A DNA stretch of 64,000 nucleotides from a virus. The notes beneath the pieces are model-generated. The model did no database searches, was not told the DNA's origin, and worked only from the letters and a program-made list of their open reading frames with translations. Positions 16,069 to 46,069 of this stretch are shown here, piece by piece; within the stretch, counting starts at the first letter, position 1, and every line of letters begins with the position of its first letter. The stretch lies in IMG/VR virus record IMGVR_UViG_3300025383_000010; one strand, 5' to 3'. The position numbers and the translations under genes were made by a program.

Positions 16069-16076
16069 GATAAATA
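16069..16076 (+). promoter_or_regulatory. T4-type late promoter (GATAAATA), probably leaderless
   Basis: ATG 16082 lies 5 nt downstream with no SD. Confidence 0.6.
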
Positions 16077-16081
16077 CATTC

Positions 16082-19295: not shown

Positions 19296-19306
19296 AGGAA
19301 AATAAC

Positions 19307-23047: not shown

Positions 23048-24733
23048 ATGCGCGTAATAGGTATATATCCAGGTAGATTTCATCCTTTTCACAAGGGTCA
23101 TGCTGCTAGCTTTAAGCAGCTAGCAAAGAAGTTTGGCTTGGATAATACCTATCTCGCTATCTCAGCAAAACAGGAACAGCCAAAGAGTCCATTCTCAGCG
23201 CAAGATCGCGCAAAGATGGCAATGGCTCTTGGCATTCCAAGCAAGAATATAATTGCTGTCCGCAATCCATACGCGGCTCAAGAATATATTGATCAACTGA
23301 ACCTTGATCCCGAGAAAACAGCAATTGTATTTGGCGTAAGTAAGAAGGACATGGAGGGCGATCCTAAGTTAGGTATAGCCCCTGATCCTCGCTTTAGCTT
23401 TAATCCTAAACGAGACGGTAGTCCTTCTTACTTACAGCCATATGGAAAAGATTTAGTCAAGCCAATGTCGGATCATGGTTATGTAATGTCAACTGATGTT
23501 GCAGAATTCCCTATCGCTGGCAAAACAATGCGCGATGCAAGTGCTATTCGTAAAGCATATGCAGGCGCAGATGACAAAACAAAAATGAGAATCCTTAGAG
23601 ATTTATATGGGGATGCAGCAGAGAAAATGAAGCAAGTATTTGACAATAACCTTCAGGTTACTGAGAGCATTCGCAGACTTATCAGCGCAATCAAGCCTAT
23701 GATCAGTGAAGCATCCCCTGCACAGAAGGCTAAGTTCGTTCAACTGTTGAGCGAGGCTAAATCTATCTTGACGGAAGGAGAGGTAGTTCCCTTTAAAAGG
23801 AAGCAGTCACAATACGACAAGTACGCAGATGCATTCTCTAAACAACACAATGATGAGCATAGACATGGTGTAGGATGGATTGAATGTCCGTATTGCGGAG
23901 ATGAAAACTGTGATTATGATTGTGATGGAAGTCAAGCAGATGGTCAACTAGACGAATACAACGTTCGTAAGACTAAGAAGTTCATTCAAAGAGCGCACGA
24001 TAAAGAACAAGGTCAGATGTATGGTTCAATGCCATATTCATCACACCCTAAGGCTGTAGCTGCAATTGGTAAGAAGTTCTTTGGTCCCAAGTTTACCCCA
24101 GATGCAGTTAAGGTAGCATTACTTCACGATGTTCTTGAAGATACACCTTATACTCCAGAACAACTTGCCAAGAAGGGCTTTAGTCCAGAAGTTATTGAAG
24201 CTGTACAATTATTAACCAAAGACAAGTCATTGTCCTATGCTGACAATATTCGCAAGATTATTAATAGCAAAAACCCATTAGCAATGATGGTTAAGTATTG
24301 CGACAACTACATGAACTATACAGGCGACAAATCACATTGGAGTCCTGAAAGAGCAGCAGCATCACAGAAAAAGTATCTAGCAAGTTTGAATATGCTTGGT
24401 GATGTGCTTGGTATTAAGAAGCATGTCGGTGATGAAGAAATGATAAGTGAAGCAGCCGGTACTGTTTATTCTGCTAGTATGGCATCTATCATTGAAGACC
24501 TAGGCAATGGTTATTTCCTAGGTGATGACAGCTATGATGACGATGAAGGATTCACTAAAGAAGGCTATTCAGTTTATCATCTTGAAGGACCTGATCAATA
24601 TAGATTAGTTGGTCATGTTCAGATGAGTCCATATCGCAATGAACCGGGTGCAATTGAAGCAAGTATTCAAAAGCTAATCACTACTGATCAAAACAATGTA
24701 TCCGAAAATATGGATTATTTAGAAGAAAAATAA
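23048..24733 (+). CDS. Multidomain protein: HxGH nucleotidyltransferase-like domain plus RelA/SpoT-type HD hydrolase plus extra modules
   Basis: YPGRFHPFHKGH; PYSSHPKAVA...ALLHDVLEDT...LLTKD...VKYCDNYMN. Confidence 0.8.
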   Translation: MRVIGIYPGRFHPFHKGHAASFKQLAKKFGLDNTYLAISAKQEQPKSPFSAQDRAKMAMALGIPSKNIIAVRNPYAAQEYIDQLNLDPEKTAIVFGVSKKDMEGDPKLGIAPDPRFSFNPKRDGSPSYLQPYGKDLVKPMSDHGYVMSTDVAEFPIAGKTMRDASAIRKAYAGADDKTKMRILRDLYGDAAEKMKQVFDNNLQVTESIRRLISAIKPMISEASPAQKAKFVQLLSEAKSILTEGEVVPFKRKQSQYDKYADAFSKQHNDEHRHGVGWIECPYCGDENCDYDCDGSQADGQLDEYNVRKTKKFIQRAHDKEQGQMYGSMPYSSHPKAVAAIGKKFFGPKFTPDAVKVALLHDVLEDTPYTPEQLAKKGFSPEVIEAVQLLTKDKSLSYADNIRKIINSKNPLAMMVKYCDNYMNYTGDKSHWSPERAAASQKKYLASLNMLGDVLGIKKHVGDEEMISEAAGTVYSASMASIIEDLGNGYFLGDDSYDDDEGFTKEGYSVYHLEGPDQYRLVGHVQMSPYRNEPGAIEASIQKLITTDQNNVSENMDYLEEK

Positions 24734-24790
24734 TTCCATAGCCTCTTCTCGTTGTAAATATCTTTATAGTTTACAACGAAAGAGGACCAA

Positions 24791-25702
24791 ATGGCACGTA
24801 AACCTACTACTAAGAATACCAAGAAGAATGTAGCCCCGAACGGCGAAGAACGCACTGTTCCAGTTGAACAGTTGCAGGAAATTGCTGAGCAAGCTGCACA
24901 AGAACAGGCCCCGGCTGAGGGTCAGGTTCAAGTTAACGTTGACTTCCTCCGTACAACTAAGGTGCATATTGCAATGCCTTGCTACGGTGGTATGTTGACT
25001 GAATCAACATTTATGTCATTCATCAAGTGGGCAAATACTGCTCGCCAGTTGGGCATTGACTGGACGCTTGAAACAATGGTAAATGAATCACTTATCAGCA
25101 GAGCAAGAAACACTCTGACTGCTAAGTTCCTAGACATGCCCGATGCAACACACTTGTTCTTCGTTGACGCTGATATCGGTTGGGAGCCCTGGCATTTGCT
25201 AGTCCTCTTGAACAGGGACGTTGACGTTATCGGTGGTTTGTACCCAATGAAGACTATGCCCATCAAGTGGGTTGTCAACGGGTTTGATGGTGCCGAAGAA
25301 GGTCCTGATGGTCTTCAAGAAGTTTCAAAGGCAGGCACCGGCTTCCTTCTTATGAAGAAGCATGTCTTTGAAAAGATGAACAGTCACCCAGCAGTTAAGC
25401 AGTACAAGAACGATATCGGCCTTGACCCGAAATATGATCAGCATTTGAAGACATATTTTGATACTGCTGTTCGCCAGAATCGTTACTATTCCGAGGATTG
25501 GACATTTTGCGAGAACCATAGAGATTTGGGAGGACGTATCTGGGTTGACAAGCGCGTCCTTCTTCGTCACTCTGGTTCCTACGTGTTCTGTCAGGAAAAC
25601 ATGAACTACCTCATTGAGAATATCGGTCCTATGTACCTTGAACAACAGCTTCAGGCAGGAAAGATTAAGTTAGTTGATGAGAACGGAAACGTAATCAACT
25701 AA
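24791..25702 (+). CDS. GT-A fold glycosyltransferase-like protein
   Basis: IAMPCYGG, ESLISRARN, LFFVDADIGW (DxD), GTGFLL, SEDWTFC. Confidence 0.75.
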   Translation: MARKPTTKNTKKNVAPNGEERTVPVEQLQEIAEQAAQEQAPAEGQVQVNVDFLRTTKVHIAMPCYGGMLTESTFMSFIKWANTARQLGIDWTLETMVNESLISRARNTLTAKFLDMPDATHLFFVDADIGWEPWHLLVLLNRDVDVIGGLYPMKTMPIKWVVNGFDGAEEGPDGLQEVSKAGTGFLLMKKHVFEKMNSHPAVKQYKNDIGLDPKYDQHLKTYFDTAVRQNRYYSEDWTFCENHRDLGGRIWVDKRVLLRHSGSYVFCQENMNYLIENIGPMYLEQQLQAGKIKLVDENGNVIN

Positions 25703-25707
25703 AAACT

Positions 25708-25742
25708 AGGAGGGGAGAGACAATAATCTCCCCTTCCTTTTT
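25708..25742 (+). terminator. Intrinsic terminator
   Basis: AGGAGGGGAGA-loop-TCTCCCCTTCCT followed by a T tract. Confidence 0.7.
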
Positions 25743-25804
25743 ATGAGTAGTAGTTTTCGTAAAAGGTTCTAGGAGTGATAAATAGATTATCAAAGGAGAT
25801 TGCA

Positions 25805-26542
25805 ATGTACCTGGAAAACAACTTTACTGAACAATACTATGATATTGTCAATCATGCTATTACAAGAGTTCCGCAATCTGCTTCTAGGAGAGAAGCAAAG
25901 ACCATACTAACTTATACCGAACGTCATCACATAATACCTAAATCAATGGGAGGCACCGACGAGAAATCTAACTTAGTGTGGTTAACTGCGGAGGAACACT
26001 TAAGAGTTCATTTGCTATTACCTAAAATGGTCAGTGAAGAAAAGAACATTAGGAAGATGACACTAGCTGCTGTGCGAATGGCTAATCCGCAAAGTAAAAC
26101 ACAACAAAGAATAATAGGAGATAACCTAATTCCCGAAATAGCTGCGATACGTGCGGAAGCAGCTATTCTACATAGCAAGTATATGAGCGAAAAACACAAA
26201 GGTAAAAATAATCCCTTCTACGGTCGTAAACACACTGATGAAACTAAAGAAATACAACGGGCGGCGTCTGCTAATAGAGTGATGACAGAACAGATGCACA
26301 CCAACTATAGTAATGGTAGAAAAACTTTTTATAAAAACAATCCGGATAAAAAGCCGTTGGGGAAAAATAATCCTAGATATGTAGATACTGTATATCTTTG
26401 GGAAAACATTAATACCGGAGAACAACTAACTGCTACTAGATTAGAGATGACCTCAACGTATCCGGAACTAAAAAGCAATATCAGCCAAGTTATTAATGGA
26501 AAATATAGTCATGCTAAAGGATGGAGAATAGTCAGCGGCTGA
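25805..26542 (+). CDS. HNH homing endonuclease with NUMOD3
   Basis: TERHHIIPKSMGGTDEKSNLVWLTAEEH..H; NPFYGRKHTDETK; late promoter 25777-25784 and AAGGAG. Confidence 0.85.
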   Translation: MYLENNFTEQYYDIVNHAITRVPQSASRREAKTILTYTERHHIIPKSMGGTDEKSNLVWLTAEEHLRVHLLLPKMVSEEKNIRKMTLAAVRMANPQSKTQQRIIGDNLIPEIAAIRAEAAILHSKYMSEKHKGKNNPFYGRKHTDETKEIQRAASANRVMTEQMHTNYSNGRKTFYKNNPDKKPLGKNNPRYVDTVYLWENINTGEQLTATRLEMTSTYPELKSNISQVINGKYSHAKGWRIVSG

Positions 26543-26573
26543 TAAATACTATATCACTATATAGGATTACCCC

Positions 26574-27410
26574 ATGAAGATCAATGAATTCATCAACGAA
26601 AGTACGACTGCTGGCGCTATTGCTACTGTAGCTACACCAATGACCACTCAAAAGCGCAGTGGAGTTGGTAAGGGAGTTTATGGCAACGAGAAGCCAGGTA
26701 CATTACTTACAGGTAAAAAGACAAGTAAGAAGTATGCCAACTCTGTCAATGAAAGCAAGATGAAAGAACTTGCTATTGATATTAGAGACATGGATAATGG
26801 CAACTTCCAAAAGAAGTATCGTACTAGTAAAGAACAGATGATCGCTTCACTAGGTACTCCTCCTTCATTGCGTCCAAAGTCAAAGAATGAAGTTAATGAA
26901 GCTGACTTACAAGAAGACGATTTGATTCTTGTTCCAGGTCAAGGTCATAGACTAAAGACCGGCTTTCATGCGTTTGACCCAGATAAAGCAGAGCATGAGG
27001 GTGAGACATTAAAGAATAGTCTTAGAACAATTGCACGTAATGCCAAAGAACTTCATACTAGATTAGAAAATAGTGATCAGTTTCCTGAATGGGTTAGTGA
27101 AAAGATTGGCACTATTAAGAGTATGATGACTAATGTAACTGAATATCTTATCAGTAAGCAAGAGTATAGTGAATCGGCAGGTGTTATTGCAGGTGGCGGC
27201 GTTGGTGAAAGTCAAGAACATTTTGACCATGAAATTAGCATGGCTAAGGGTGAAATGCGTAGTGCAGCCAAAGCTGCAAAGAGAATCTATCAAATGCTTG
27301 ATCAGCGTGACGAACTAATGGCATGGCAGCAAAGCTATATCACATTAGCAAGTGACTACTTAGATAGCGTTGCTGATAGTATGGAAGAAGAGGCTAAAGG
27401 AAATGCGTGA
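26574..27410 (+). CDS. Putative internal head polyprotein with two helical repeats
   Basis: MKINEFINE N-terminus; EHEGETL...EWVSEKI..I.SM...V.EY and DHEISMA...AWQQSYITLASDYLDSV; late promoter 26541-26548. Confidence 0.6.
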   Translation: MKINEFINESTTAGAIATVATPMTTQKRSGVGKGVYGNEKPGTLLTGKKTSKKYANSVNESKMKELAIDIRDMDNGNFQKKYRTSKEQMIASLGTPPSLRPKSKNEVNEADLQEDDLILVPGQGHRLKTGFHAFDPDKAEHEGETLKNSLRTIARNAKELHTRLENSDQFPEWVSEKIGTIKSMMTNVTEYLISKQEYSESAGVIAGGGVGESQEHFDHEISMAKGEMRSAAKAAKRIYQMLDQRDELMAWQQSYITLASDYLDSVADSMEEEAKGNA

Positions 27411-27831
27411 TCTTATCAATCTCTTAGAAGCAGTTGAAAAAGGTTGCCCCCGTGCCACACACGATATTAACTTAAATCTTAAGAATCGTCAAATTGCTAT
27501 TGACGAATATATGTATGGTCCTGCGAATCCAAATAAGCCTGGGTCATACTGGAAAGATATGAGCAACGTTTTTAAAGTAGACGAAGCAACCGCAAAGTCT
27601 ATGATGTGCGGAAACTGTGCTGCATTTGATGTTAGTGACAGTATGCGCGATTGCATTAGTAAAGGCATCAAAGGTGATGAAGAAAATATTGACAGTAATG
27701 CTACAATCAATCTTAGTGATTTAGGTTATTGTAATTTCTTACACTTCAAGTGCGCAGGCAGCCGCAGTTGCAAAGCATGGGTAACAGGCGGCCCTATTAC
27801 TGAAAAAGATAAAAACAAGAAGGCTGATTAA
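27403..27831 (+). CDS. Cys-rich metal-binding protein, putative internal head protein
   Basis: MRDLINLLE; CGNCAAF...GYC...FKCAGSRSCKAW. Confidence 0.65.
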   Translation: MRDLINLLEAVEKGCPRATHDINLNLKNRQIAIDEYMYGPANPNKPGSYWKDMSNVFKVDEATAKSMMCGNCAAFDVSDSMRDCISKGIKGDEENIDSNATINLSDLGYCNFLHFKCAGSRSCKAWVTGGPITEKDKNKKAD

Positions 27832-27832
27832 T

Positions 27833-30688
27833 ATGAGTTCTATCATGAAGGGTATCGTTGACGAAGGGGAAAACGTAGCTGTAATCTACATTGACGGTAA
27901 GGCAGCAACCAAATACGCAAGAGCGCATGAAGCAGAAGAAGATGCAAAGCGTATGCGTACTAAGTTCCCTAACAAGAAGATTGAAGTCAAGCAAGAAATG
28001 AGAGAAGATGTCCAGCTTGACGAAAACCTTCATAAATGGTTCAAAGAAAAGTGGGTACGTTTTGGACCTGATGGTAAGATTCGCGGTGCTTGTGCTAGAG
28101 GTAGCGATAGTGAAGGTAAGCCAAAGTGCCTACCGCAAAGCAAAGCTCACTCTATTGGCAAAAAGGGTCGCAAGTATGCTGCTAGTAAAAAGCGCAGAGA
28201 AGATCCAAACCCAGATCGTCATGGCCCAGCACACAATGTTGCTACAAAGAAAAAGACCAATGAAGAAATGATGGATGAGAATTGCTGGAAGGGTTATCAT
28301 AAAGAAGGTAACAAGAAGATGTTCGGCAAGACTGTTCCCAACTGTGTAAAGAACGAAGACCAAGAGTTGGACGAAAAGTGGAGCGCAAAGTATAAGCGCA
28401 GTATTGATTGCTCACATCCAAAAGGCTTCAGTCAAAAAGCACATTGTGCCGGACGCAAAAAGAATGAAGACATTCAAGAAACACAGCAATGCCCAGAATG
28501 CGGCGGAGCAATGTATCATGAATCAATGCTTAATGAAAAGCAAGATGCCTGCTATTATAAAGTTAAGAGTCGCTATAAGGTTTGGCCAAGTGCATATGCT
28601 AGCGGTGCATTAGTTCAGTGTCGCAAGAAAGGTGCTAAGAATTGGGGAACCAAGAGCGAGAGCGTAGAAGAAGCCGCTAATCCTGCACAACAGGCCGCTA
28701 TCGCTATCAATATGAAAAAGCATCATAAGAAGCCAAAGAATGAGGCAAAAGGCACACCTGGTGGTGTAGAAATGTTTAGAACACCTGCAATGGTCAATGC
28801 TACTATGCAGCAAAGTCTATACAAAAAGGATTTGGATCCTATTAAGAGAGCAGAAAACCTTGCAAAACAGAAAGCATATCGTGATGCTAATCCAAAAGAA
28901 CCGGTGCAAAACATTCACATAGGCGCAGGCGCATATCCTATCTCTGTACTTCAAAATTGGATGGATAATAAAGATATTAACAGCGTTATGCAGTTTGCAA
29001 TCAATAAGTTTGGCAATAAACAATCCAAGGAATTTAAAGCTGAATTAGCCTCGGATCCTAAGTTCAAAGAAGCATTTGTTAATCTACTGGATGTCGGCGC
29101 GGGCAACTTAGCTGCTAGAAATGCATATATGGCAAAACGAGGTGTTAAAACTCCGGACACTGATTATAGAACGGCGGAACAAACACAAGCCGGATATGAT
29201 GCAGTTAACAGAATAAATGATATATTACTCTCTTATTACAAAAAGTATGGGGTTGATAAAACTGGGCGCAGAGTGCCACCGGGATACAACTATAACTTAG
29301 AAGAGGGCGTAATCGTAGGACACGATGCTAAAGATCCAGAAGTTGCTATTCTCGGTGGTGCTGGAACAATGAGTCTATCACGATTAAAGAAGAAAGCGCA
29401 CGGTGAAGCTACTGCATTAGCAAATGACATTAGTAAAGGTTCATTCAAAGCAGCAGCCTACAATATCAAGCAACTCGCTAACACACTTAACACTATCGCA
29501 GCAGCCGAAGAAGAAATGGCAAAGAGATATTTCGTTGAAGCAATGGATTGGCAACAAGGAAACAATAACGTTCAACACGACCATACTTTTTTTGAAGCAA
29601 TGGAATATTTAAAGCATATTTATCCTATTGTAAAGCAGTATTTGATTCGTAGAGCAGAGGTAGGATTCCGTGCAGTAAAAAGCCTAGATTATCTATCTAG
29701 TGCTGACCCAATGAAGCATTTAGATGATAAGCAATTCCTAAAAAGCATGTCTAACATGAAAAATGTTGATGCGGTTATTAAATATCTCAATTTAAATAGA
29801 CTATCAATAATGAGCGGTAGTAAACAAGTTTCTGCTAGCATTGGTTATACATGGACCACTTTCTTAAGCCCGAAAAAGGATTTTGGAGTAATATACTATC
29901 AGGATCGCGGTATGGGGCAGGATATGATTGTCATTGGTGCCAAAGATAACGCTACACATAGAAAAGTTTATGATGTATTTGTTGATGCTGGCGTAATTGT
30001 AGGCAGAGAGAAAAAAATAAAAGAACCTGAATTGCCTAAGGGTATGAGAGTGTCCGGTGCAGCTTCTCGTGATGACGCATATAACCGTGCAATGAATAAG
30101 TTCTTAGGCAATAATGATGATGACGGGGTTAACGAAGACTATACTGGAGAGTTTGCAGCAGAAAAGACTCCTGCAGTTAATCCATATGGTGGGTTAAAGG
30201 ATCGTAAGTTTAGAGGTGCTATCAGTGAAGGTATTGCATTGAGTGAAATGCCAGACACTTCAGGTGCAGTTGGTGTTCAGCCAGGCGGTTGGAGAACTTA
30301 TAAATCAAAAAGTGCCGGCGTAAGCGAAAGTAGATATACCGATGACATCATGACATTCGCAAAGGATTTAAATAGTGAAATGCGTAGAGAACGCTATGAT
30401 TGGGAATATGTTGATCTAGGCGATTTAGAAGAAGCGATTGATGACGCCAGCGAACAACTCAGTATGTTTGCACATAGCAATATGTGCGATGCGTTCCGTG
30501 AATATGATCTAGAGGATCAAATCAAACTCATCAAGGCATTCAACAAGAAAGCAGTAAAGAACGAAGACACTTCATACGCAGGTGGCATGGGTCAAGGTCA
30601 CTCAGGTGAATCTTATCGCAAGTTTACTCCAAAGAGTGCCGGCACTTTCAAAAAAGAATCAGCCATTATGAAGGGCCTTAAGAGGTAA
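27833..30688 (+). CDS. Putative polyprotein of small basic/Cys modules
   Basis: Modules LHKWFKEKWV, CWKGY..G.K...GKTVPNCV, KWSAKYKRSIDC..PKGFSQKAHC, DACYYKVKSRYKVWPSAYASGAL separated by xxE linkers. Confidence 0.65.
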   Translation: MSSIMKGIVDEGENVAVIYIDGKAATKYARAHEAEEDAKRMRTKFPNKKIEVKQEMREDVQLDENLHKWFKEKWVRFGPDGKIRGACARGSDSEGKPKCLPQSKAHSIGKKGRKYAASKKRREDPNPDRHGPAHNVATKKKTNEEMMDENCWKGYHKEGNKKMFGKTVPNCVKNEDQELDEKWSAKYKRSIDCSHPKGFSQKAHCAGRKKNEDIQETQQCPECGGAMYHESMLNEKQDACYYKVKSRYKVWPSAYASGALVQCRKKGAKNWGTKSESVEEAANPAQQAAIAINMKKHHKKPKNEAKGTPGGVEMFRTPAMVNATMQQSLYKKDLDPIKRAENLAKQKAYRDANPKEPVQNIHIGAGAYPISVLQNWMDNKDINSVMQFAINKFGNKQSKEFKAELASDPKFKEAFVNLLDVGAGNLAARNAYMAKRGVKTPDTDYRTAEQTQAGYDAVNRINDILLSYYKKYGVDKTGRRVPPGYNYNLEEGVIVGHDAKDPEVAILGGAGTMSLSRLKKKAHGEATALANDISKGSFKAAAYNIKQLANTLNTIAAAEEEMAKRYFVEAMDWQQGNNNVQHDHTFFEAMEYLKHIYPIVKQYLIRRAEVGFRAVKSLDYLSSADPMKHLDDKQFLKSMSNMKNVDAVIKYLNLNRLSIMSGSKQVSASIGYTWTTFLSPKKDFGVIYYQDRGMGQDMIVIGAKDNATHRKVYDVFVDAGVIVGREKKIKEPELPKGMRVSGAASRDDAYNRAMNKFLGNNDDDGVNEDYTGEFAAEKTPAVNPYGGLKDRKFRGAISEGIALSEMPDTSGAVGVQPGGWRTYKSKSAGVSESRYTDDIMTFAKDLNSEMRRERYDWEYVDLGDLEEAIDDASEQLSMFAHSNMCDAFREYDLEDQIKLIKAFNKKAVKNEDTSYAGGMGQGHSGESYRKFTPKSAGTFKKESAIMKGLKR

Positions 30689-30693
30689 TAAGA

Positions 30694-32649
30694 ATGACCT
30701 CTGATTTAGCAAAGTTAATGGAATATATTGATATGCTACAGTCAGAGGAAGTTCCTGAACCAATTGAGGAAATAGTAGAAGAAAACAAAGTGCATCCACT
30801 ATTACAAGCAATGCAAGAACTTCGTGAAGAAGGTATAGTTGAATCTGTTGATCCTGGCACAATCTTCAATCAAGTGAAAGATATTCACAGAGAGTTTAGC
30901 GACATTGAAGAAGGTGACTTGCCTGATCGTATTTATTGGTTTGATGAATATAAGAAAAGTGAACTACCACTATCAAAGATTAACTTAGATGAGTTCTATG
31001 TTGATGAAGATTTAGTAGAAGACTATATTGAATATATCAAAGACTCACCCAAAACAATGCCACCTATTGTTTATGACCCCATTGCAGGTTCAGTGATTGA
31101 TGGTATGCATCGTGCTAATGCTTATGCTCGTTTAGGGTATGAGACGATCCCTGCTTATGTTGGCTTAACGAAGTCAAGCAGCTACGGTGAGCGCGAACCA
31201 GATAACATTGATGAGACAGTTGAAGAACCAGTCATTGAAGCAAGCCCCGATACATTAGAGGGTAGCTTCACTCCAGACTTAGTTGAGAGTAAGACATGGT
31301 TAGCTAAATTGTTAGCTAAGGGTCTAAAGGGCAAGAATGCTGGTACTATCTATGTATTAGGTAGCTGGTATGGCAACATGGGTATCTTCTTACAGCAAGC
31401 TGGTGTAAACTTTAAGAAACTAGTATTAGTTGAACCAGACGAAGAAAAGTTAATGCGTAGTAAAGACTTATTACAGCAACTAAATGATGACGGTAAACTC
31501 ATATTAATTCATCAAAATGCAGAAGATATTGTATATGAAAAGCCATGCGTAGTAATTAATACTAGCTGCAATGAAACAGGTCCAGTATTCTTAGCAAAAC
31601 TTCCTGATAATGTATTATGTTGTTTACAGGCTCGTAATAATGTTGACAATGTATTATTAGATACAGATAGTTTAGAAGAATTTGTTGAATATTTCCCATT
31701 AAACAAAACTTATTATACTGGCGAGAAAGAGTTAGCTGATCCTGAAACAGAATATACTCGTTATATGATCATTGGTCGTAGTGGTAAAAAGCTAAATGAG
31801 TCAGCAACAGACAATAAACAGAGAATGTCATCGGAACAGACTCTTGACTATTTACGATCAATCATGGGTACTGTTATAGATAGAGACGATTATGATCATT
31901 GGCGAAATCGTGTTTTAGATCACGATCACTTTGACTTCAAGACCATTCCTACAAATTCAATTTATAATGAACTGCCCGGATTGGAAAAAGACAAGATTGA
32001 AAAATACAAAAAGATGGACTTTTCAAAGGCACCTCCCGTTGTAGTAGACAGTGATGGCTATCTAATAGATGGATATCATAGAGTAAACACAGCAAGGGCA
32101 CTGGGCGTACCGACTGTCAAGGCCTGGGTAGGTGTTAAACAAACTAATGAAACAGTAAGCACTGGACTAGGCGGTGGTAGTGCTGGTAACAATGGTGGCT
32201 CAATGGTCGGCGGCCCTACTACATATGAGCAAGAATATGGTATGGTAAAGAGTAGAGGTCAACGTAGAATCATGACCATGACTGAGGATACTACTACATT
32301 AAGTGATATCTACGATAACAACTACCCAGATCATAATGAATTGATTTGGAACTATATCGGCACCAGTGACCTTGATACTCCATTCATGATTCAAACTATT
32401 AATCCAAACAAACTAAATCTATGCTTGACTAGCCAGTATAGAATAGAACATATTGAAGAACTATTTGATATGATGGATGAAGATCAACGAGAAACAGTAG
32501 AACATTATGAAAATGATCCTAATCTCAGTGATCAAATCATTGTAATGAACGATGGTAGAATCATTGACGGCAATCATAGAGCGTTAGCAGCAGTGTTGTC
32601 TAATCGTCCAATCAAGTTTGTTGACATTGGTGAAGAAGAAGACATATAA
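30694..32649 (+). CDS. Multidomain protein: three ParB/Srx-like domains plus a Rossmann methyltransferase-like domain
   Basis: PPIV..VIDGMHRA, PPVVV..LIDGYHRV, IIDGNHRA; YVLGSWYGNMG...VINTSCNE. Confidence 0.75.
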   Translation: MTSDLAKLMEYIDMLQSEEVPEPIEEIVEENKVHPLLQAMQELREEGIVESVDPGTIFNQVKDIHREFSDIEEGDLPDRIYWFDEYKKSELPLSKINLDEFYVDEDLVEDYIEYIKDSPKTMPPIVYDPIAGSVIDGMHRANAYARLGYETIPAYVGLTKSSSYGEREPDNIDETVEEPVIEASPDTLEGSFTPDLVESKTWLAKLLAKGLKGKNAGTIYVLGSWYGNMGIFLQQAGVNFKKLVLVEPDEEKLMRSKDLLQQLNDDGKLILIHQNAEDIVYEKPCVVINTSCNETGPVFLAKLPDNVLCCLQARNNVDNVLLDTDSLEEFVEYFPLNKTYYTGEKELADPETEYTRYMIIGRSGKKLNESATDNKQRMSSEQTLDYLRSIMGTVIDRDDYDHWRNRVLDHDHFDFKTIPTNSIYNELPGLEKDKIEKYKKMDFSKAPPVVVDSDGYLIDGYHRVNTARALGVPTVKAWVGVKQTNETVSTGLGGGSAGNNGGSMVGGPTTYEQEYGMVKSRGQRRIMTMTEDTTTLSDIYDNNYPDHNELIWNYIGTSDLDTPFMIQTINPNKLNLCLTSQYRIEHIEELFDMMDEDQRETVEHYENDPNLSDQIIVMNDGRIIDGNHRALAAVLSNRPIKFVDIGEEEDI

Positions 32650-32676
32650 GCATAAATAGTCTATAGGACTATAATC

Positions 32677-33120
32677 ATGCTACCAGAAACACTTAAAACA
32701 CTTTTGGCTTCAGCCTACACGCTTTCTATCAAGGCTCAACAGTTTCATTGGAACGTTGAAGGCCCTGACTTCCCCCAGTATCACGAGTTTCTAGGCAACT
32801 TCTATGAAGAAGTTTATGGAAACACTATTGATAGACTAGCGGAAACTATTCGCCAGTTAGATGAATATGCTCCTGGCAGTCTCACTCGCTTTGCTGAGTT
32901 GTCACAAATCTCAGACCAGACTAAAGTTCCTCGTGCTGAATTGATGATGCAGGAACTATATCATGATAACGCTACGATTCTTGCTATGTACAAGCAAGCG
33001 TTTCATGTAGCTAATGATGCAGATGAACAGGGCATTGCGAACTTCATTGCAGAGCGCATTGATGCTCACGCCAAGCATAATTGGATGTTGAGAAGTATTC
33101 TTAAAACTCAGAGAGCATAA
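32677..33120 (+). CDS. dps: Dps ferritin-like protein
   Basis: QQFHWNVEGPDFPQYHEFL...IDRLAE...KHNWML; late promoter 32651-32658. Confidence 0.92.
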   Translation: MLPETLKTLLASAYTLSIKAQQFHWNVEGPDFPQYHEFLGNFYEEVYGNTIDRLAETIRQLDEYAPGSLTRFAELSQISDQTKVPRAELMMQELYHDNATILAMYKQAFHVANDADEQGIANFIAERIDAHAKHNWMLRSILKTQRA

Positions 33121-36050
33121 TGAGAGCAAAACATTTTCTTGAACTATATGAGGCTCAGCAAGAGTTATTTGAAGTTGAAATGAGTCCTTCAAATCTCAAG
33201 AAGTTGGCCGCTGGTGTTCCTGGTGCCAAAGTTGGCATAGAGTTTGAAATGGTCGTCCCTGATGTTGAAATTGATGATGAAGATAGATATGACGAGCCAG
33301 AAGAAGATTATAGCCATGATCCACGTCCCGATGATATTGATGACATCGTTCGTTTCTTTGGTGGTGAAGACGAGTATGTTGGACAACAGAATAGTGATCG
33401 TGAAGTAGAACGACTAGGCGAAGAACTTACTGAAAAGTTTCATGAATGGCAAACTGAGCAGATTGACAATGATTGGAATGGTCCAGATGGTAAAGGCTTC
33501 TTTAGAGACTGGTGTCACAATAACATAAGTGATGAAGACGTTGCCGAGCATGTAGGCAAAGGAGAAGACTTATTCGGAGAAACAGTTCCCGACAAAGAAG
33601 ATTGGGAAAAGTTTATTGAAGATGAATGGGACGAACAGGGCGATAATTATAATAGAGCCTATGAAGAATATATTGAAACTAAACGAGACGAAGGTGACTT
33701 TAGCGAAAGAGACTTTTTGCACGACATTGGCATTGATGAGATGTCGGATGTTATGAGACGAGTTAACGCAAATATTTCGTGGCCATATTACACTGCGCCG
33801 GAATCTAGTTATGGTGGTGGTGAAGCCATTGAATCTATCGGTGATGATTTTAGTGAGGCAATTGGCAAAAAAGTTTATTCAAGCAGTGATTATCACGGCG
33901 CACGTAGAGCACCGGATGCATACTCATTAGAAACTGATAGTAGTATTAATCATAGATCAGGTGAAGCTGGATTAGAGTTTATCAGTCCTCCCATGCCTGT
34001 TGATGAAATGATTGAAGACTTAAAGAAAGTTAAAGAATGGGCTGATGACCGCGGAGCATATACTAATAATTCAACTGGTCTGCACATTAACGTTAGTGTT
34101 CCTAACTATAGTCGTGATGACCTTGACTATGTAAAGTTAGCTATATTACTTGGCGACAAGTATGTATTAGATAAGTTTGGACGTATTGGCAATACATATG
34201 CTAAATCAGCACTTGACATTATTAAAGAAAGAGCTAATAGTCCAGCAGATGTTGATAGACTATTAAAGCAATTAAAAGGCAATATGGAAACTATTGCTAG
34301 TAAATTAATTCACAGTGGTCGCACTAACAAGTATACTAGTATTAATACTAAAGATAGCTACGTAGAATTCCGTAGTGCAGGTGGCGATTGGCTTGACAAA
34401 AACTTTGATAAGATTGAAGATACATTATTGAGATTCGTAGTAGCACTTGATGCTGCCTGCGATCCAAAGAAGTATAAGAAAGAATACTTAAAGGGTTTGT
34501 ATAAGTTGCTCAAGCCTAAGGATCCAAAGAGCGATATGAGCTATCTTGCTCGTTATATGGCTGGGGAAATCACTCGCTCAGAATATGCTAAGCAGCTTGA
34601 AAAAACTCGCACCGAACGTTTTAAAGACCAAGGTATTAGAATCCTTCACCCAGATGATGTTGAAGAAAACGATTGGGTAGTAGAATATAACGATGGTAAG
34701 AAAGAAAATACCATTTATATTGCAAACACTGATACAGTTCCTGATGAGTCATCCGCATTTAAGGCCGCACAAAAGTTCAAGCCAAATTGGTTTAGACCAG
34801 ACACGATTGAATATATCACTGTAAAGCCATTTAAGTTTGACCCTTCATTAGATGATCTTAAACTATATCGTGCTGACTATGGTCATGGGCTTACCAGCGT
34901 TGTTGCAGAAAACGAAGAAGAAGCAAGAGATTATGTACTAGCAATGAATCCGGAATATTTTGCAGCACATCCCAATACTGAAATCACGTTGACTGACGAA
35001 CATGCTAGTAAGCGTCAAATTAATCAGATGATTGAATGGCAAACTAATAAAGTTCGTGAGGGTCTAGAATGGTCACAGCGTCCAAAGATTTGGCGTGTTA
35101 GAGTAGTTGATGGATCAAATGGTTATCAACGCTACTTCTTTATAGCTGCAACTACAAGAGATAACGCAATTAATGTAGCGAATAAACTTGAAGGTGAAGA
35201 CGTAGAAGGTATGCAAGGGTTTGATATGTATATAGATCAAAACTATCCTGATGAGGACACATATCAAGAATATGAAAAAGCGCAAGAAGATTTAATTCAA
35301 CAACGTGAACAAGAAAGACAGCGAGATAGAGAAACTACTGAGTTCAATAAAGCCGGCGAAGATGAAACTATTGACATTAGTAATCTAAAGACATATCGTT
35401 TAAGCAATTACAATGGTTATGCATATTTTGTTGCTGAAAATGGTGCTGAGGCTGTTGAAATAGCTATGAAATTAGAACCTGATAAGTTTGTTCGTCCAGA
35501 AGATATTACGGTACAAGATCAATCAGGTTTAGTATCTACCAGCCAGCCTTCGTTAATGCGTAGTATGTATAAGAGTCAGCAAGAAAAGTTAGCCCGTCTT
35601 GAGCAGTCTACTCAACCTGAGCAGTATAGCGTTTATGACACAAGCAATGGCCGCGGCGACAATATCTTTATTGCAGCAAGAACACCAGTTGAAGCGCATA
35701 CAATCGCTGCTAGACTATACCCTGATATCTTCAATGATGAAATAAGAACAGAGAGATATGGTGCCGCTACGCAAATGGATGCTAATAGATTATTGCGACA
35801 GCAAGCCGCAAGAGAGCAGGCATTAAGACAATCTAATCCACAATTTAGCGGATCATTTGGATCTCCAGAGCCTGCATTTAGTGAACCATCATCTACTAGA
35901 CAGTCTTGGAGAGTTCAAAATGTAGACTCCGGAGAAGCTCGCTATTTCCCGGCTATTGATATGCAGGATGCTATTAACACAGCAAGACGAGAATATCCTG
36001 CAATGTTCCCACGATCTGCGGGATTGTATGCTACACGAGCAAGTAACTAA
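33120..36050 (+). CDS. Putative amidoligase (COOH-NH2 ligase type 2) with six C-terminal repeats
   Basis: GIEFE, ETDSSI, GLEFISPP, STGLHINVS, KYTSIN, YVEFR. Confidence 0.8.
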   Translation: MRAKHFLELYEAQQELFEVEMSPSNLKKLAAGVPGAKVGIEFEMVVPDVEIDDEDRYDEPEEDYSHDPRPDDIDDIVRFFGGEDEYVGQQNSDREVERLGEELTEKFHEWQTEQIDNDWNGPDGKGFFRDWCHNNISDEDVAEHVGKGEDLFGETVPDKEDWEKFIEDEWDEQGDNYNRAYEEYIETKRDEGDFSERDFLHDIGIDEMSDVMRRVNANISWPYYTAPESSYGGGEAIESIGDDFSEAIGKKVYSSSDYHGARRAPDAYSLETDSSINHRSGEAGLEFISPPMPVDEMIEDLKKVKEWADDRGAYTNNSTGLHINVSVPNYSRDDLDYVKLAILLGDKYVLDKFGRIGNTYAKSALDIIKERANSPADVDRLLKQLKGNMETIASKLIHSGRTNKYTSINTKDSYVEFRSAGGDWLDKNFDKIEDTLLRFVVALDAACDPKKYKKEYLKGLYKLLKPKDPKSDMSYLARYMAGEITRSEYAKQLEKTRTERFKDQGIRILHPDDVEENDWVVEYNDGKKENTIYIANTDTVPDESSAFKAAQKFKPNWFRPDTIEYITVKPFKFDPSLDDLKLYRADYGHGLTSVVAENEEEARDYVLAMNPEYFAAHPNTEITLTDEHASKRQINQMIEWQTNKVREGLEWSQRPKIWRVRVVDGSNGYQRYFFIAATTRDNAINVANKLEGEDVEGMQGFDMYIDQNYPDEDTYQEYEKAQEDLIQQREQERQRDRETTEFNKAGEDETIDISNLKTYRLSNYNGYAYFVAENGAEAVEIAMKLEPDKFVRPEDITVQDQSGLVSTSQPSLMRSMYKSQQEKLARLEQSTQPEQYSVYDTSNGRGDNIFIAARTPVEAHTIAARLYPDIFNDEIRTERYGAATQMDANRLLRQQAAREQALRQSNPQFSGSFGSPEPAFSEPSSTRQSWRVQNVDSGEARYFPAIDMQDAINTARREYPAMFPRSAGLYATRASN

Positions 36051-37240
36051 TGAGAGCTAATGAATTCATAACCAGTCAACAGTTGGATGAAGACTGGAAG
36101 AAAACTCTAGGCACAGTAGGCGCGGCTGGTGCATTAGCATTAGGTGCTCATTCTCTTATGAAGCCAAAAAATGACTTTCAGCCTGTTACTAGAATTGATT
36201 TGTCCGCACCAAAACCACTAGCTGCTAATGTATTGCATCAAGTTAAAGCAATCATGAATAAGCCCGCTGCAAAGATATTAAAAAATGCTGCTATTAAAGC
36301 AGGGTTGAAGGGTGCAGAGTTGCAACAGTTCATGGCACAATGCGCCCACGAAACTCAGAACTTTTCTTCATTGAAAGAGTTCGGCGGCTCATTAGACTTT
36401 AGAAAATATGATCCAAAATATGCACCAAAGAAAGCAGCAATACTAGGAAATACTAATCCCGGTGATGGTGTCAAATATCATGGGCGCGGATTTATTCAAT
36501 TAACTGGTCGTGAAAACTACAAGAAAGCAGGCACTGCATTAGGACTTCCATTAGAGAAACATCCTGAGTTAGTTGAGAAGCCTAATGTAGCAGCTAAGGT
36601 TGCATTATGGTTTTGGCAGCATCGTGTATCACCTAAGGTAAATGACTTCACTGACACAGAACAGGCTACTAAACATATCAACTCTGGTCTTCATGGATTA
36701 GCCGACAGAGATAAAAAGTTTCAAGCACTACATCAACTAGCATATGTTAGAGAAGATGAGTTAGACGAATACAAAGCTGATAACGATATAAACGGTAAGG
36801 GACTTGGCACCACTGGTTATAACAGTAACGTAGACTATCGTGGATTAAGAGTATTGATGAAGCCAAGTGACTTCTTATCACTTGCTGCACATCTTCCAAG
36901 TCCAACAAGCGTTGATTATATCGTACAGCACATGGAAAAGGGTGGAAGTTTAGGTTCTCCATTCTTGATCATTGACATTCCTGAAAAATACTTTGATGGT
37001 GACTTCACTGGCTTGAACTATGCACAAGTTGTAGGGCATGAAGGTCGCAATCGTATGCTCGCTATTCAGAAAGTAGAAGGTGATGAGCCATGTGAAGTTC
37101 ATATCTTTGGTTACGGAGAAATCAGAGCCAGACACTTTACACCGGAAATCATTGAGCAACTAGAGGTTGCAATGCGTAACCAAGATGGCAAGCTAGTGTT
37201 TGCTAAGCCTGGCCAATTATTATTTGAGCCAATGGCATAA
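36050..37240 (+). CDS. Second GH19 lysin fused to a ParB-like C-terminal module
   Basis: QFMAQCAHET, GDGVKYHGRGFIQLTGRENY, ALWFW, TKHINSG; after ELDE: PFLII...VVGHEGRNRM. Confidence 0.8.
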   Translation: MRANEFITSQQLDEDWKKTLGTVGAAGALALGAHSLMKPKNDFQPVTRIDLSAPKPLAANVLHQVKAIMNKPAAKILKNAAIKAGLKGAELQQFMAQCAHETQNFSSLKEFGGSLDFRKYDPKYAPKKAAILGNTNPGDGVKYHGRGFIQLTGRENYKKAGTALGLPLEKHPELVEKPNVAAKVALWFWQHRVSPKVNDFTDTEQATKHINSGLHGLADRDKKFQALHQLAYVREDELDEYKADNDINGKGLGTTGYNSNVDYRGLRVLMKPSDFLSLAAHLPSPTSVDYIVQHMEKGGSLGSPFLIIDIPEKYFDGDFTGLNYAQVVGHEGRNRMLAIQKVEGDEPCEVHIFGYGEIRARHFTPEIIEQLEVAMRNQDGKLVFAKPGQLLFEPMA

Positions 37241-37246
37241 AAAAGG

Positions 37247-37275
37247 TTGACAACGGTACACACCAATGATATAGT
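37247..37275 (+). promoter_or_regulatory. sigma70-type promoter TTGACA-17-TATAGT, with a late promoter at 37292
   Basis: Near-consensus elements with 17-nt spacing. Confidence 0.65.
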
Positions 37276-37326
37276 GATATTTGTCAGCAGTGATAAATAC
37301 TCTATCAAAACAAAAAGGGTTATAAA

Positions 37327-37656
37327 ATGAAGATTAACGAACTGCTCATGGAATCGTTTGATGACGAAGAAGAACTTGACATCGTAGACGATCCGGATAC
37401 TGATAAGGTTCCTCACATCGTAATGCAGTTCAAGAAGGCTCTTGACAACGGTGGTCGTTCGCCTGTTATCTTCAAGGACGGTGATAAGGTGAGCATCCCT
37501 GTTGCTGTTATGGCTGACTTCCTAAACGGCTATGATTCAATGAAGCCGTTTGAGCGTGAAGAATTGCAGAAGGTTGCAACTCAGAGCCTAGAACACTTCA
37601 AGGAAGCACTTCGTACTATGAAGCGTAACACTATGCATAAGAGTATCTACCGTTAA
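37327..37656 (+). CDS. Hypothetical protein, putative internal head protein
   Basis: MKINELLME N-terminus. Confidence 0.65.
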   Translation: MKINELLMESFDDEEELDIVDDPDTDKVPHIVMQFKKALDNGGRSPVIFKDGDKVSIPVAVMADFLNGYDSMKPFEREELQKVATQSLEHFKEALRTMKRNTMHKSIYR

Positions 37657-37762
37657 TTTGACCTACGTCAAAACCGTGTAGTTATTTTTACTCCCATATT
37701 GCTAAATACATATGAAGCCCGTAGTTAATCTACGGGTTTCCTATAATACAATAGGAGTACGA

Positions 37763-38044
37763 ATGGGAGAGTTCTTTAATTTAGTAGCCCAGGTTGGCTT
37801 TCCAATCGCTGCTGCATGTGGCGCTGGTTACTTCGTATTCCTTACATTGAAGTTTATTCTTGCGGGTGTGTCTGGTAGCGTATCAGGCATGAAAGGGATC
37901 ATTTCTTCTCTTGACAATCGTGTTAAGACAATGAACCATGATGTCATTCGAATTGATACAGTAGTTAGTAATGCTCTTGGCCTAAAACCAGACGTAGATC
38001 GCATTGCTCGTGCTGATGGTAAGACGGATGCAAGGAGAGACTAA
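37763..38044 (+). CDS. Small membrane protein (GFPI motif, YvrJ-like)
   Basis: AGGAG RBS then MGEFFNLVAQVGFPIAAACGAGYFVF; coiled-coil-like tail. Confidence 0.7.
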   Translation: MGEFFNLVAQVGFPIAAACGAGYFVFLTLKFILAGVSGSVSGMKGIISSLDNRVKTMNHDVIRIDTVVSNALGLKPDVDRIARADGKTDARRD

Positions 38045-38196
38045 TGCTTATTGTAGAATGTTGGCTAGACGTTCATAATAATGGAAGCATCACGATAGAT
38101 GAAGATGCGTCCAGACATTTGAAGGTTGAGGAAGGAGACGAGTTTGTTGCGTTTATACGTGATGAACGTGTGATATTGGTAAAGAAGAAGAAATAA
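38044..38196 (+). CDS. Small AbrB/MazE/SpoVT-like protein, 50 aa (absent from the ORF track)
   Basis: MLIVECWLDVHNNGSITIDEDASRHLKVEEGDEFVAFIRDERVILVKKKK*; AAGGAG RBS; fills the gap exactly. Confidence 0.6.
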   Translation: MLIVECWLDVHNNGSITIDEDASRHLKVEEGDEFVAFIRDERVILVKKKK

Positions 38197-38505
38197 ATGG
38201 GCAGTGGATTAGCAGACTTAATCAACAAATATGGATTCCCCATCATTGCTGCTGGCGGCATGGGATACCTCATATATTATGTATGGGAGTGGGCAACCAA
38301 AGAAGTTAAGCCTGTTCTCAGTGAAGCTAATACCACGTTGATTGCTCTAATTGATCGCATTAGAATGCTAGACAATGACTTGATTCGTTTAAATCAAAAA
38401 GTGAACACCGTATTGCACTTGCGCGGTAAGACTATTGAGCATGAACGTGTTGAAGCAGAACATATTATCAACCAGCCAAAGAAAGCAGAAGAACATAAGA
38501 AATAA
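38197..38505 (+). CDS. Small membrane protein, paralogue of 37763..38044
   Basis: DLINKYGFPIIAAGGMGYLIYYVW...LIDRIRMLDNDLIRL versus LDNRVKTMNHDVIRI. Confidence 0.7.
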   Translation: MGSGLADLINKYGFPIIAAGGMGYLIYYVWEWATKEVKPVLSEANTTLIALIDRIRMLDNDLIRLNQKVNTVLHLRGKTIEHERVEAEHIINQPKKAEEHKK

Positions 38506-38521
38506 TACTAGGGAGAGAATA

Positions 38522-38968
38522 ATGATAAGAAAAATAATGATATTACTTTCTCTATGTGCAAGTAGTACAGCATATGCAGATCCAATAGTACAGCAATTCA
38601 AAGACCCATCCTTTAGTGGCTATGGCTGGTCTACTCATGTCCTACAAGTTGAAGCAGCAATGGAAGCACATAAAGCATCAAACGATAATGCTATTGCTAC
38701 TGCTCAAGCAAATGCTGTATCAGCCGCTGCAAATACTCCATTAGCAAAGTTCATCAATCTATTCACTAGCCAAGTATATGCACAACTTGCTACACAGTTG
38801 TCTAATAATCTATTTCAAACAGGTGGCTCGGCTACTACTGGCACATTTAACTTAGATGGTAACACTATTAGCTATGTGAAAACAGGAACTAATGTTCAAC
38901 TTACTGTAATAGACAAGACGGGTAATCAAACTGTAGTAACAGTTCCGATTGCTACGTTTGCGTTTTAA
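38522..38968 (+). CDS. csgF: Curli assembly factor CsgF-like
   Basis: Signal peptide then DPIVQQFKDPSFSG (F.NPSF.G-like); QVYAQLA.QL..NLF; directly upstream of csgG. Confidence 0.75.
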   Translation: MIRKIMILLSLCASSTAYADPIVQQFKDPSFSGYGWSTHVLQVEAAMEAHKASNDNAIATAQANAVSAAANTPLAKFINLFTSQVYAQLATQLSNNLFQTGGSATTGTFNLDGNTISYVKTGTNVQLTVIDKTGNQTVVTVPIATFAF

Positions 38969-38978
38969 GGAGTAAGTT

Positions 38979-39806
38979 ATGAAGAAACTTATTCTATTAT
39001 TAGCTGCTACCACGATGCTTACAGGGTGTGTTGGTGCAATACATCCTAGACTAAACCAAGACAACGAATTATTACGCTCTAAGCCAAAAGTAGTTACTTT
39101 TGCTAATAAAAAAGTGTTCGATTCTATTCCTGAATTAGATGGGCCACCAATTCCTATTGCAGTATATGCATTCACAGATAAGACTGGACAAAGAAAGCCA
39201 TCATCAACTACAGCGTCATTTAGTAGCGCAGTAACACAAGGCGGTGAGGCTTATCTAATCAAGACATTGGGTGATGCGGCAGGCGGCAAATGGTTTAAAC
39301 CAGTTGAACGTGTTGGCATTGATAGTCTCATTAAAGAACGTCAATTGATTCGTCAAATGCGTGAACAAGAATTCGGTGAAAAGGCTGAACCTCTGCCGCC
39401 ATTAATGGTTGCAGGCCTTATCATTGAAGGTGGTATTATTGATTACAATAGTAACACTAAAACAGGAGGTAATGGTGTTCGTTACTTAGGAATAGGTCCG
39501 AACACTCAGTACAGTGAAGATATGGTCGTCATCAGTATGCGACTTGTATCAACACAAACCGGTGAAGTGCTAGATAGTGTTACTGTAACCAAGACAGTAC
39601 TATCAACATCTGAAGGGATCACTGCTTTTAAGTTCTTTGATTTAGGAACACAAGCATTTGAACTTGACGGGCAGCAAACAGCAAACGAACCGGGAAGTTA
39701 TGCTATACGCAGTGCCATAGAACTCGGTGTAGCAGAACTAATTAAAAGTGGTGAAAAGAAAGGACTTTGGCACTATAAAACCACTATTACTAAAGCAACA
39801 AAATAA
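38979..39806 (+). CDS. csgG: Curli secretion channel lipoprotein CsgG
   Basis: Lipobox MLTGC; AVYAFTDKTGQRKP..SFSSAVTQG; WFKPVERVG; KERQLIR; EGGIIDY..N..TGG.G..YLGIG. Confidence 0.92.
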   Translation: MKKLILLLAATTMLTGCVGAIHPRLNQDNELLRSKPKVVTFANKKVFDSIPELDGPPIPIAVYAFTDKTGQRKPSSTTASFSSAVTQGGEAYLIKTLGDAAGGKWFKPVERVGIDSLIKERQLIRQMREQEFGEKAEPLPPLMVAGLIIEGGIIDYNSNTKTGGNGVRYLGIGPNTQYSEDMVVISMRLVSTQTGEVLDSVTVTKTVLSTSEGITAFKFFDLGTQAFELDGQQTANEPGSYAIRSAIELGVAELIKSGEKKGLWHYKTTITKATK

Positions 39807-39817
39807 GGATTATAACG

Positions 39818-42928: not shown

Positions 42929-42938
42929 AGGATAGTTT

Positions 42939-44993: not shown

Positions 44994-45020
44994 GTAGGGT
45001 TGCTAAAAAGGAGAAGTAAA

Positions 45021-46046: not shown

Positions 46047-46069
46047 GTAACACTTAATAGTCACTTTAC

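Follow-up and report, generated by a model that had tools for sequence, protein, structure and literature searches.

The stretch of viral DNA analyzed here, a window of 64,000 nucleotides from IMG/VR record IMGVR_UViG_3300025383_000010, carries between positions 23048 and 37656 a block of genes, several of which begin with a similar short leader peptide that ends in glutamate. We consider it slightly better than an even bet (a probability of about 0.52) that these genes are expressed late and encode cargo carried inside the head of a T4-superfamily jumbo phage, and that part of this cargo is made as polyproteins jointed by sites for the prohead protease. That the leader functions as a capsid address has a good probability, and the chance that the internal joints are cleaved lies just short of even.

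The window corresponds to bases 49553-113552, reverse strand, of a viral contig of 113.5 kb with an estimated completeness of 31%. No close cultured phage was found for it by comparison at the DNA level. The family-B DNA polymerase has 46-47% identity with its counterparts in the jumbo phages Atu_ph07 and Phosso and 43% with those in Rak2-like phages, and the combination of a clamp loader, a ClpA-like ATPase and virion-protein PHROGs fits a T4-superfamily jumbo phage. The comparisons reported below use an uncultured syntenic relative of 244 kb (IMGVR_UViG_3300043399_000297, referred to as G001), which has most flanking genes in common with the window at 70-88% identity while the block itself is strongly rearranged, and 80 related loci (1.33 Mb) gathered via the family of gene 26574. 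Genes are named by the position at which they start (Table 1).

The N-termini quoted in an earlier note on this DNA are all present in the sequence where the note had placed them. A pattern fitted to them was scanned against the six-frame translation of the 113-kb contig and gave ten matches, every one of which is the first methionine of a coding-strand open reading frame (ORF). The window holds those at 26574, 27403, 33120, 36050, 37327 and 46680, and the others (72887, 103103, 107185 and 107883) lie outside it. The leader has 8-10 residues and the consensus M-[RK]-[AI]-x-[EQD]-[FIL]-[LIV]-x-E, followed by S, T, L or A; the ten genes carry differing domains, that is, the same leader precedes otherwise unrelated proteins. 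In the T4 records, IPII and IPIII begin with MKTYQEFIAE/A and gp24 with MAKINELLRE/S (the slash stands after the terminal Glu). To avoid circularity, a second pattern was written from the T4 leaders alone. It has five matches on the contig, all at ORF starts (100 second-order Markov shuffles gave 0.14 on average and never more than 1), and four in G001, also all at ORF starts; the likeness to the T4 capsid-targeting sequence (CTS) proposed by the earlier note is thereby upheld. In the 80 related loci the 216 matches are all on the coding strand and 185 of them are ORF starts, and the leader-bearing ORF starts belong to at least 14 single-linkage protein families. When the alignment is anchored on the terminal Glu, hydrophobic positions 3, 6 and 7 and Glu 9 of the leader correspond to CTS positions 4, 7, 8 and 10, and it has been shown by mutagenesis in T4 that residues 4 and 7 are involved in targeting, and residues 8 and 10 in processing (PMC9026906). 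The leader matches the T4 CTS and the gp24 propeptide closely, and its terminal motif is that of the T4 prohead protease.

The codons of the leader vary synonymously (Ile as ATC, ATT or ATA; Arg as AGA, CGA or CGG; Ala as GCA, GCG or GCC) while the residue classes are kept, and two G001 orthologues retain RAK[ED]FL upstream of the first ATG, behind GTG and TTG starts (for 33120, an orthologue and a paralogue, behind TTG and GTG). These two observations indicate that the constraint acts on the peptide and not on the RNA. Beyond the window, the domain of an NT5C nucleotidase begins at residue 14, after the leader, and a Fe/Mn superoxide dismutase (SOD) has a 19-residue leader-like extension with two motif-type Glu sites; the leader is therefore an add-on to domains with known ends. 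It is also a separable unit, given that in one 26574 homologue a whole module lies between the leader Glu and the next residue. Genes 27833 and 30694 have leaders of other, longer types, and four genes of the block (23048, 24791, 25775 and 32677) have none. The N-terminus MSILTE at 16687, which had been counted among the leaders, is not conserved in the orthologue.

A candidate for the protease was identified in G001, which encodes a Peptidase_S77 protein (E = 5e-29) of 212 residues, like T4 gp21, and 32% identical to it; the gene belongs to a T4-like head module that also encodes portal, core, scaffold and capsid proteins. The G001 capsid protein (L007:1999-3195:-) aligns to T4 gp23 from the conserved N-arm on. 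The 43-residue propeptide before the N-arm contains four L-x-E sites, the last of which directly precedes a mature-looking Ser-Thr-Ala-Gly N-terminus. T4 gp21 cleaves after L/I-x-E (PMC9026906); from this specificity, the S77 protease and the L-x-E sites of the capsid propeptide we infer the same rule for this lineage, whose protease would cut after L/I-x-E. The residues that follow the leader in the 26574 family (Ser-Thr-Thr-Ala-Gly-x-Ile-Ala-Thr; window 26601-26650) resemble the presumed mature N-terminus of the G001 capsid protein and that of T4 gp24. It looks as if leader, cut site and N-arm of this family had been copied from a capsid protein.

The second line of evidence concerns the internal joints, which carry a hydrophobic-x-Glu motif. 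As the earlier note had anticipated, comparison with orthologues places gain and loss of modules at such joints in 26574, 27833 and 30694. Relative to G001, 26574 has two inserted modules, each of which begins after [IV]xE and ends in [IV]xE, and the C-terminal modules that follow VGE differ. What 27833 has beyond its 475-residue G001 orthologue is a domain of 460 residues and a set of small, basic, Cys-rich modules, each with xNE or xSE at its bounds. The ParB module that ends 30694 is part of a fusion with an amidoligase paralogue in G001, and the shared homology starts right after TNE in the window and right after VDE in G001. A metagenomic protein (P0124) 98% identical to 30694 is missing exactly residues 370-486, which represent one ParB module and its linker, and reads KKLDE/TVSTG across the junction; other homologues have an ART-PolyVal module in the same linker, between IDE or VDE and VTE or LEE. 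In these relatives, as read from aligned proteins, modules are gained, lost and swapped right after hydrophobic-x-Glu joints.

Exact-shift and common-shift tests of indel ends mostly failed, given that aligners misplace gaps by a few residues and split insertions; a looser window test placed 15 of 35 indel ends at the motif, against 13% expected. Homology breakpoints were analyzed in their place. In the 26574 family, right homology ends coincide exactly with a motif Glu in 13.5% of cases (3.4% for random positions), left homology ends begin three residues before a motif Glu in 15% (2.8%), and 45% of the breakpoints have a Glu at most two residues away. The junction Glu has a hydrophobic residue at P3, the first position of the motif, in 65% of cases in this family, as against 42% of all Glu (odds ratio 3.1); for the 30694 family the values are 40% and 31% (odds ratio 1.55). 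The AlphaFold (AF2) model of 30694 has a mean predicted local distance difference test score of 68 and shows four confident domains and four disordered linkers, every low-confidence linker having at least one hydrophobic-x-Glu site; 14 of the 26 sites lie in the linkers, which make up 28% of the length (p = 0.005). The joints of the 26574 model are likewise within disordered stretches.

Several results weigh against the proposed reading. The breakpoint counts, deduplicated by context, are phylogenetically non-independent. In the linkers of 30694, which are Glu-rich, the motif is no richer than other Glu (Fisher p = 0.36), and the density of [ILVM]xE in the leader set (observed/expected 1.34) does not differ from that in 69 control ORFs (1.22); the expected excess of the motif over Glu content was borne out at homology breakpoints, and neither in overall density nor in the linkers of the model. 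Some joints read K-N-E or T-N-E instead of the canonical L/I-x-E. The proposal that domains are bounded by xxE held for 26574, 27833 and 30694, and failed for the C-terminal repeats of 33120, between which there is no xxE. Gene 23048 shows xxE-bounded module differences and yet no leader. The search for a gp21 homologue, successful in G001, found no Peptidase_S77 gene on the contig itself, which is 31% complete. The 26574 family, searched in its 209-residue core form, has no match in cultured phages, and in the whole genome of Atu_ph07 the T4-type pattern matches one ORF start only; these matches are too few to test leader enrichment among the 131 virion proteins identified in that phage by mass spectrometry.

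Part of these results would be expected if the leader is a true, removed capsid-targeting propeptide and the joints are left uncut, the large proteins being packaged, or acting, as intact polyvalent proteins; the xxE joints would then be Glu-rich flexible linkers whose similarity guides the recombination of modules. We regard this as unlikely, although it is the best placed of the alternatives. It accounts for linkers in which the motif is not enriched over other Glu, for a motif density similar to that of controls, for several joints with K or T at P3, and for the joint-bounded modularity of 23048 in the absence of a leader; besides, known polyvalent proteins such as the N4 virion RNA polymerase are packaged unprocessed (PMC5512222). 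It accounts less well for breakpoints that lie exactly after Glu with a preference for hydrophobic P3, or for the recurrence of the joint motif at the end of each leader and throughout the lineage's capsid propeptide. The modules of 25-45 residues in 27833 are implausible as parts of one fold, and the core proteins of T4 are cleaved at many such sites (PMC9026906).

The expression signals of the leader genes were also analyzed. ATAAATA is the core of the T4 late promoter. The contig has 31 copies of this sequence on the coding (+) strand and 10 on the opposite one, mostly 18-27 nucleotides or 4-7 nucleotides before a start. It is found at most 40 nucleotides upstream of 6 of the 10 leader genes and of 15 of 170 other genes (odds ratio 15.5, p = 2e-4), and the remaining four leader genes are stop/start-coupled inside operons headed by ATAAATA. 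In the block, boxes precede 26574, 32677 and 37327, and the genes in between are coupled by stop and start codons that overlap; in G001, ATAAATA also precedes the portal gene. From this arrangement, the predicted role of the leader genes is that of late genes expressed together with the head genes, in agreement with the late promoters assigned by the earlier note. In eight genes an ATAAATA box lies just 4-7 nucleotides before the ATG, with no space for a Shine-Dalgarno site (window 16070-16082 and 46668-46680; 69512, 72875, 82220, 103092, 106082 and 107171 in the extended numbering), and the late mRNAs of these genes may have little or no 5' untranslated region. All but one of the eight also begin with an N-terminus of the leader type or similar to it, a hint of a portable cassette of promoter plus address.

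The close boxes also lend themselves to an explanation in which the shared N-terminus is not a capsid address and reflects instead a constraint on translation starts in late, partly leaderless mRNAs, a degron for the Clp machinery of the phage itself, or a tag recognized by a modifying enzyme, for instance a radical-SAM protein. A phage that encodes a ClpA-like ATPase and DnaJ, and, as judged by N-terminal sequence only, ClpX-, ClpP- and ClpS-like proteins, could make use of a degron, and G001 has a radical-SAM cluster of about six genes (G001:C1:65700-79900). We consider this explanation improbable: the synonymous codon variation and the leaders kept behind GTG and TTG starts do not fit an RNA element, leaders are also kept in coupled genes that have no promoter close by, and the invariant terminal Glu together with the motif at internal joints fits a protease and neither a degron nor an mRNA element. 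The radical-SAM variant was judged unlikely, since the sole radical-SAM gene of the contig is QueE and the G001 cluster is more than 110 kb from the block.

If the reading as protease-jointed cargo is right, the route would be docking, cleavage, retention in the head and injection. The short amphipathic N-terminal leader, similar to the T4 CTS, would dock its protein on the prohead core while the shell is still open, and the gp21-type (S77) protease would cut behind the terminal hydrophobic-x-Glu of the leader. Where the protein is modular (26574, 27833, 30694 and relatives), the same protease would probably also cut the motif in the disordered joints. The freed modules, among them the ParB-like domains, the domain with a methyltransferase fold and the small basic Cys peptides, would stay with the DNA and exit with it at infection. 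Because each module has its own downstream joint, modules could be added, lost or moved by recombination with targeting and release undisturbed. More tentatively, and with somewhat less confidence than we give to joint cleavage itself, the system may be described as plug-in cargo, in which a module would be loaded, cut free and delivered with the DNA whenever it follows a T4-type address and has a hydrophobic-x-Glu joint on either side. Relatives would then carry combinatorial sets of effectors from one shared pool of modules, which would include ADP-ribosyltransferases, ParB-like nucleases, a methyltransferase, nucleotidyltransferases, a muramidase and small DNA-binding peptides. The 26574 family, the most widespread member, may even anchor itself via its copied capsid-protein N-terminal arm.

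Several known systems share features with this one. In T4, the internal proteins IPI, IPII, IPIII and Alt bear a CTS and are processed by gp21 (Mullaney & Black 1996; reviews PMC9026906, PMC3012670), and the reviews suggest that the CTS is a general route for loading varied proteins in T4-like phages. The leader genes resemble those of the T4 internal proteins in having a leader of about 10 residues with the same hydrophobic spacing and terminal Glu, in that unrelated late proteins carry it, in the hypervariable locus, and, as far as G001 shows for the lineage, in an S77-family protease with a predicted L/I-x-E motif. They differ in that the cargo of T4 is limited to single small proteins or one enzyme, cut at the termini only, whereas the phage analyzed here, known from sequence alone, has far more tagged genes, including multi-domain chains of 650-980 residues with joint motifs and ordinary enzymes (nucleotidase, SOD, GNAT-like). 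The T4 core proteins gp22, gp67 and gp68 do have many L/I-x-E sites per chain and yield small peptides, some of which are retained in the head; in contrast, they are scaffolding that is destroyed, not chains of folded enzyme or binding modules. Polyvalent proteins, described in phages and conjugative elements and predicted to be packaged in heads (Iyer, Burroughs, Anand, de Souza and Aravind 2017; PMC5512222), also combine unrelated conflict-type domains (ParB/DdrB-like, methyltransferase, lysozyme, zincin, GNAT, ART) in one chain and are strongly mosaic between relatives. Their release has been proposed to occur via embedded peptidase domains (MPTase autoproteolysis), and neither a T4-type N-terminal address nor joints with a prohead-protease motif are described for them (PMC5512222). 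In phiKZ-like phages (phiKZ, 201phi2-1, SPN3US), a gp21-related protease cuts many head-internal proteins, the inner-body and ejection proteins, after the Glu of a three-residue motif (S/A/G-x-E), sometimes at multiple sites, and the fragments are retained and ejected (PMC5694885, PMC9026906). This is a separate lineage with another preference at P3 and with propeptides of more than 100 residues instead of a shared tag of 9-10, and combinatorial exchange of modules at the sites is not described. The CTS as a general loader and the polyvalent proteins are thus known already; the joint-coded, exchangeable polyprotein form would be a variation on these known systems. If it is confirmed, the T4 CTS and the polyvalent proteins would be joined by one rule, that of an address peptide combined with joints readable by a protease, which would account for the way giant phages diversify their injected proteins; the virion cargo of uncultured jumbo phages could be predicted from sequence alone, and a natural design would be at hand for loading several proteins at once into T4-type capsids of laboratory strains.

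Table 1. Features of the block and of one leader gene downstream of it, in window positions (a slash marks the end of a leader).
Feature	Position	Strand	Basis and remarks
Cytidylyltransferase-like + HD phosphohydrolase, 561 residues, without leader	23048..24733	+	Pfam, PHROG
303-residue protein, without leader	24791 (start)		PHROG 1574
HNH/NUMOD3 homing endonuclease, 255 residues, without leader	25775-26542
Late-promoter-like ATAAATA box, head of operon 26574-32649	26542..26548	+	sequence
Modular protein, 278 residues	26574..27410	+	leader 26574-26600 MKINEFINE/S; joints VNE59, VNE109, VGE212
Cys-rich protein, 142 residues	27403..27831	+	leader MRDLINLLE/A; overlaps upstream gene by 8 nucleotides
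Polyprotein, 951 residues	27833..30688	+	11-residue leader ending VDE/G
Polyvalent protein, 651 residues	30694..32649	+	PHROG ParB, AF2, Foldseek
ParB-like module 2 + linker of 30694 (residues 370-486)	31801..32151	+	bounds LNE and TNE; missing in P0124
Dps/ferritin-like protein, 147 residues, without leader	32677..33120	+	Pfam Ferritin E = 3.5e-22, domain from residue 5
Amidoligase_2 protein, 976 residues	33120..36050	+	leader MRAKHFLE; Pfam 241-386
GH19 protein, 396 residues	36050..37240	+	14-residue leader ending LDE/D; Pfam GH19 8.7e-13; PHROG endolysin families
Acidic protein, 109 residues	37327..37656	+	leader MKINELLME/S, kept in G001 orthologue; ATAAATA at 37293
Protein with HExxH zincin-like motif, 192 residues	46680..47258	+	leader MRAKQFIIE/S; box ends 5 nucleotides before ATG

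Among the modular proteins, 26574 consists of the leader, a sequence like the N-arm of capsid proteins, and the modules. It gave no family match in Pfam or PHROG; its 431 homologues are all from uncultured sources, and in the matches listed the leader motif is kept in 120 of 120, in two of them behind a longer called N-terminus; where homologues have additional modules, these stand within the chain or at its end, behind [ILV]xE. No family match was obtained for 27403 in Pfam, PHROG or a Pfam sub-region search. Gene 27833 has six small basic Cys modules (residues ~64-304), a large domain (305-768, nucleotides 28745-30136) and C-terminal modules. The first small module, three more (~176-276) and the large domain are absent from the G001 orthologue, with xxE at the bounds (PKNE/...GVNE/). 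For residues 63-277, homologues are found where T4-like cyanophages have their structural genes, and an ESM Atlas search with the large domain gave no usable match.

In 30694 a leader helix (residues 2-16) is followed by ParB-like domain 1 (50-165), a class I S-adenosylmethionine-methyltransferase fold (188-365), and ParB-like domains 2 (412-481) and 3 (532-647). The methyltransferase fold has Foldseek matches to methyltransferases at E ~1e-6, and this module is 75-84% identical between 30694 and its homologues. The homologues also include ART-PolyVal (PF18760), Pol-beta-type nucleotidyltransferase, GGACT and GNAT domains, with PF18765 and PF01909 among the Pfam matches; PF18760 was not found by Pfam in the window proteins and is present in most of the listed homologues. 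Given these ART-PolyVal, nucleotidyltransferase and GNAT domains, the family belongs to the polyvalent proteins (Iyer et al. 2017). The modular payload polyproteins proposed for the block in the earlier note are in line with these homologues; the HD protein 23048, the Dps-like protein and the HNH protein of the block have no leader.

The amidoligase protein 33120 contains in its C-terminal half (window 34617-36047) about six alpha/beta repeats of ~35 residues each, without family match, whose number and order differ in G001; a Pfam sub-region search with these repeats, parts of 27833, 27403 and the zincin part gave nothing above threshold. Its amidoligase part has a homologue in Atu_ph07, gp196, encoded beside the portal gene, and gp196 was detected in virions with 14 unique peptides and 30% coverage (PMC6102473). 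The virion data for RsoM2USA comprise ten abundant bands only and are silent on its amidoligase homologue.

In 36050, a Gly/Ala-rich hydrophobic segment (residues 19-37) is followed by a muramidase-like GH19 domain (88-196) and a C-terminal domain; residues 240-396 gave no family match in the Pfam sub-region search, and the ParB assignment made earlier for the C-terminus was not confirmed. For this gene alone, export as a signal-arrest-release endolysin, instead of packaging in the head, is very improbable: the GH19 domain with its PHROG endolysin families, the weakly hydrophobic segment and late expression are compatible with it, but a leader ending in LDE/D precedes that segment, an additional C-terminal domain of 150 residues is present, the gene is start/stop-coupled to the amidoligase cargo gene and has no orthologue in G001 whereas the untagged GH19 gene is conserved there, and a lysozyme fused to other domains is a known layout of polyvalent proteins (PMC5512222). 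The untagged GH19 gene (5577-6200), 81% identical in G001, precedes large tail-fibre-like genes and may encode the true endolysin or a tail lysozyme.

The Dps-like gene 32677 lies between the cargo polyproteins, has its own ATAAATA box (32652), and heads an operon with 33120 and 36050, being coupled to the amidoligase gene by a TAATG overlap. Together with the tagged Fe/Mn SOD beyond the window it hints at protection of DNA from oxidative damage in or by the virion, and at a part of the cargo that protects the packaged DNA instead of attacking the host.

The first residues of the NMNAT-like/HD protein 23048 form the active-site strand of a nucleotidyltransferase. Its HD module is absent from the G001 orthologue, which has a different module in front of the C-terminal DYLEEK tail kept by both proteins. 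The closest G001 relative of the HNH gene 25775 is in the matching place on the opposite strand, which fits a mobile gene. The G001 orthologue of 46680 is 81% identical and retains LVE/S. A run of secreted or membrane proteins at window 37702-46105 is entirely absent from G001, where the orthologues of 37327 and 46680 are only ~700 bp apart, so that this run represents an insertion or deletion in a hypervariable cargo region. The proteostasis genes of the phage comprise DnaJ and the ClpA-like ATPase (window 18483-21577) and, beyond the window (extended 79050-85260), ClpX-, ClpS-, small-heat-shock- and ClpP-like genes judged by N-terminal sequence only.

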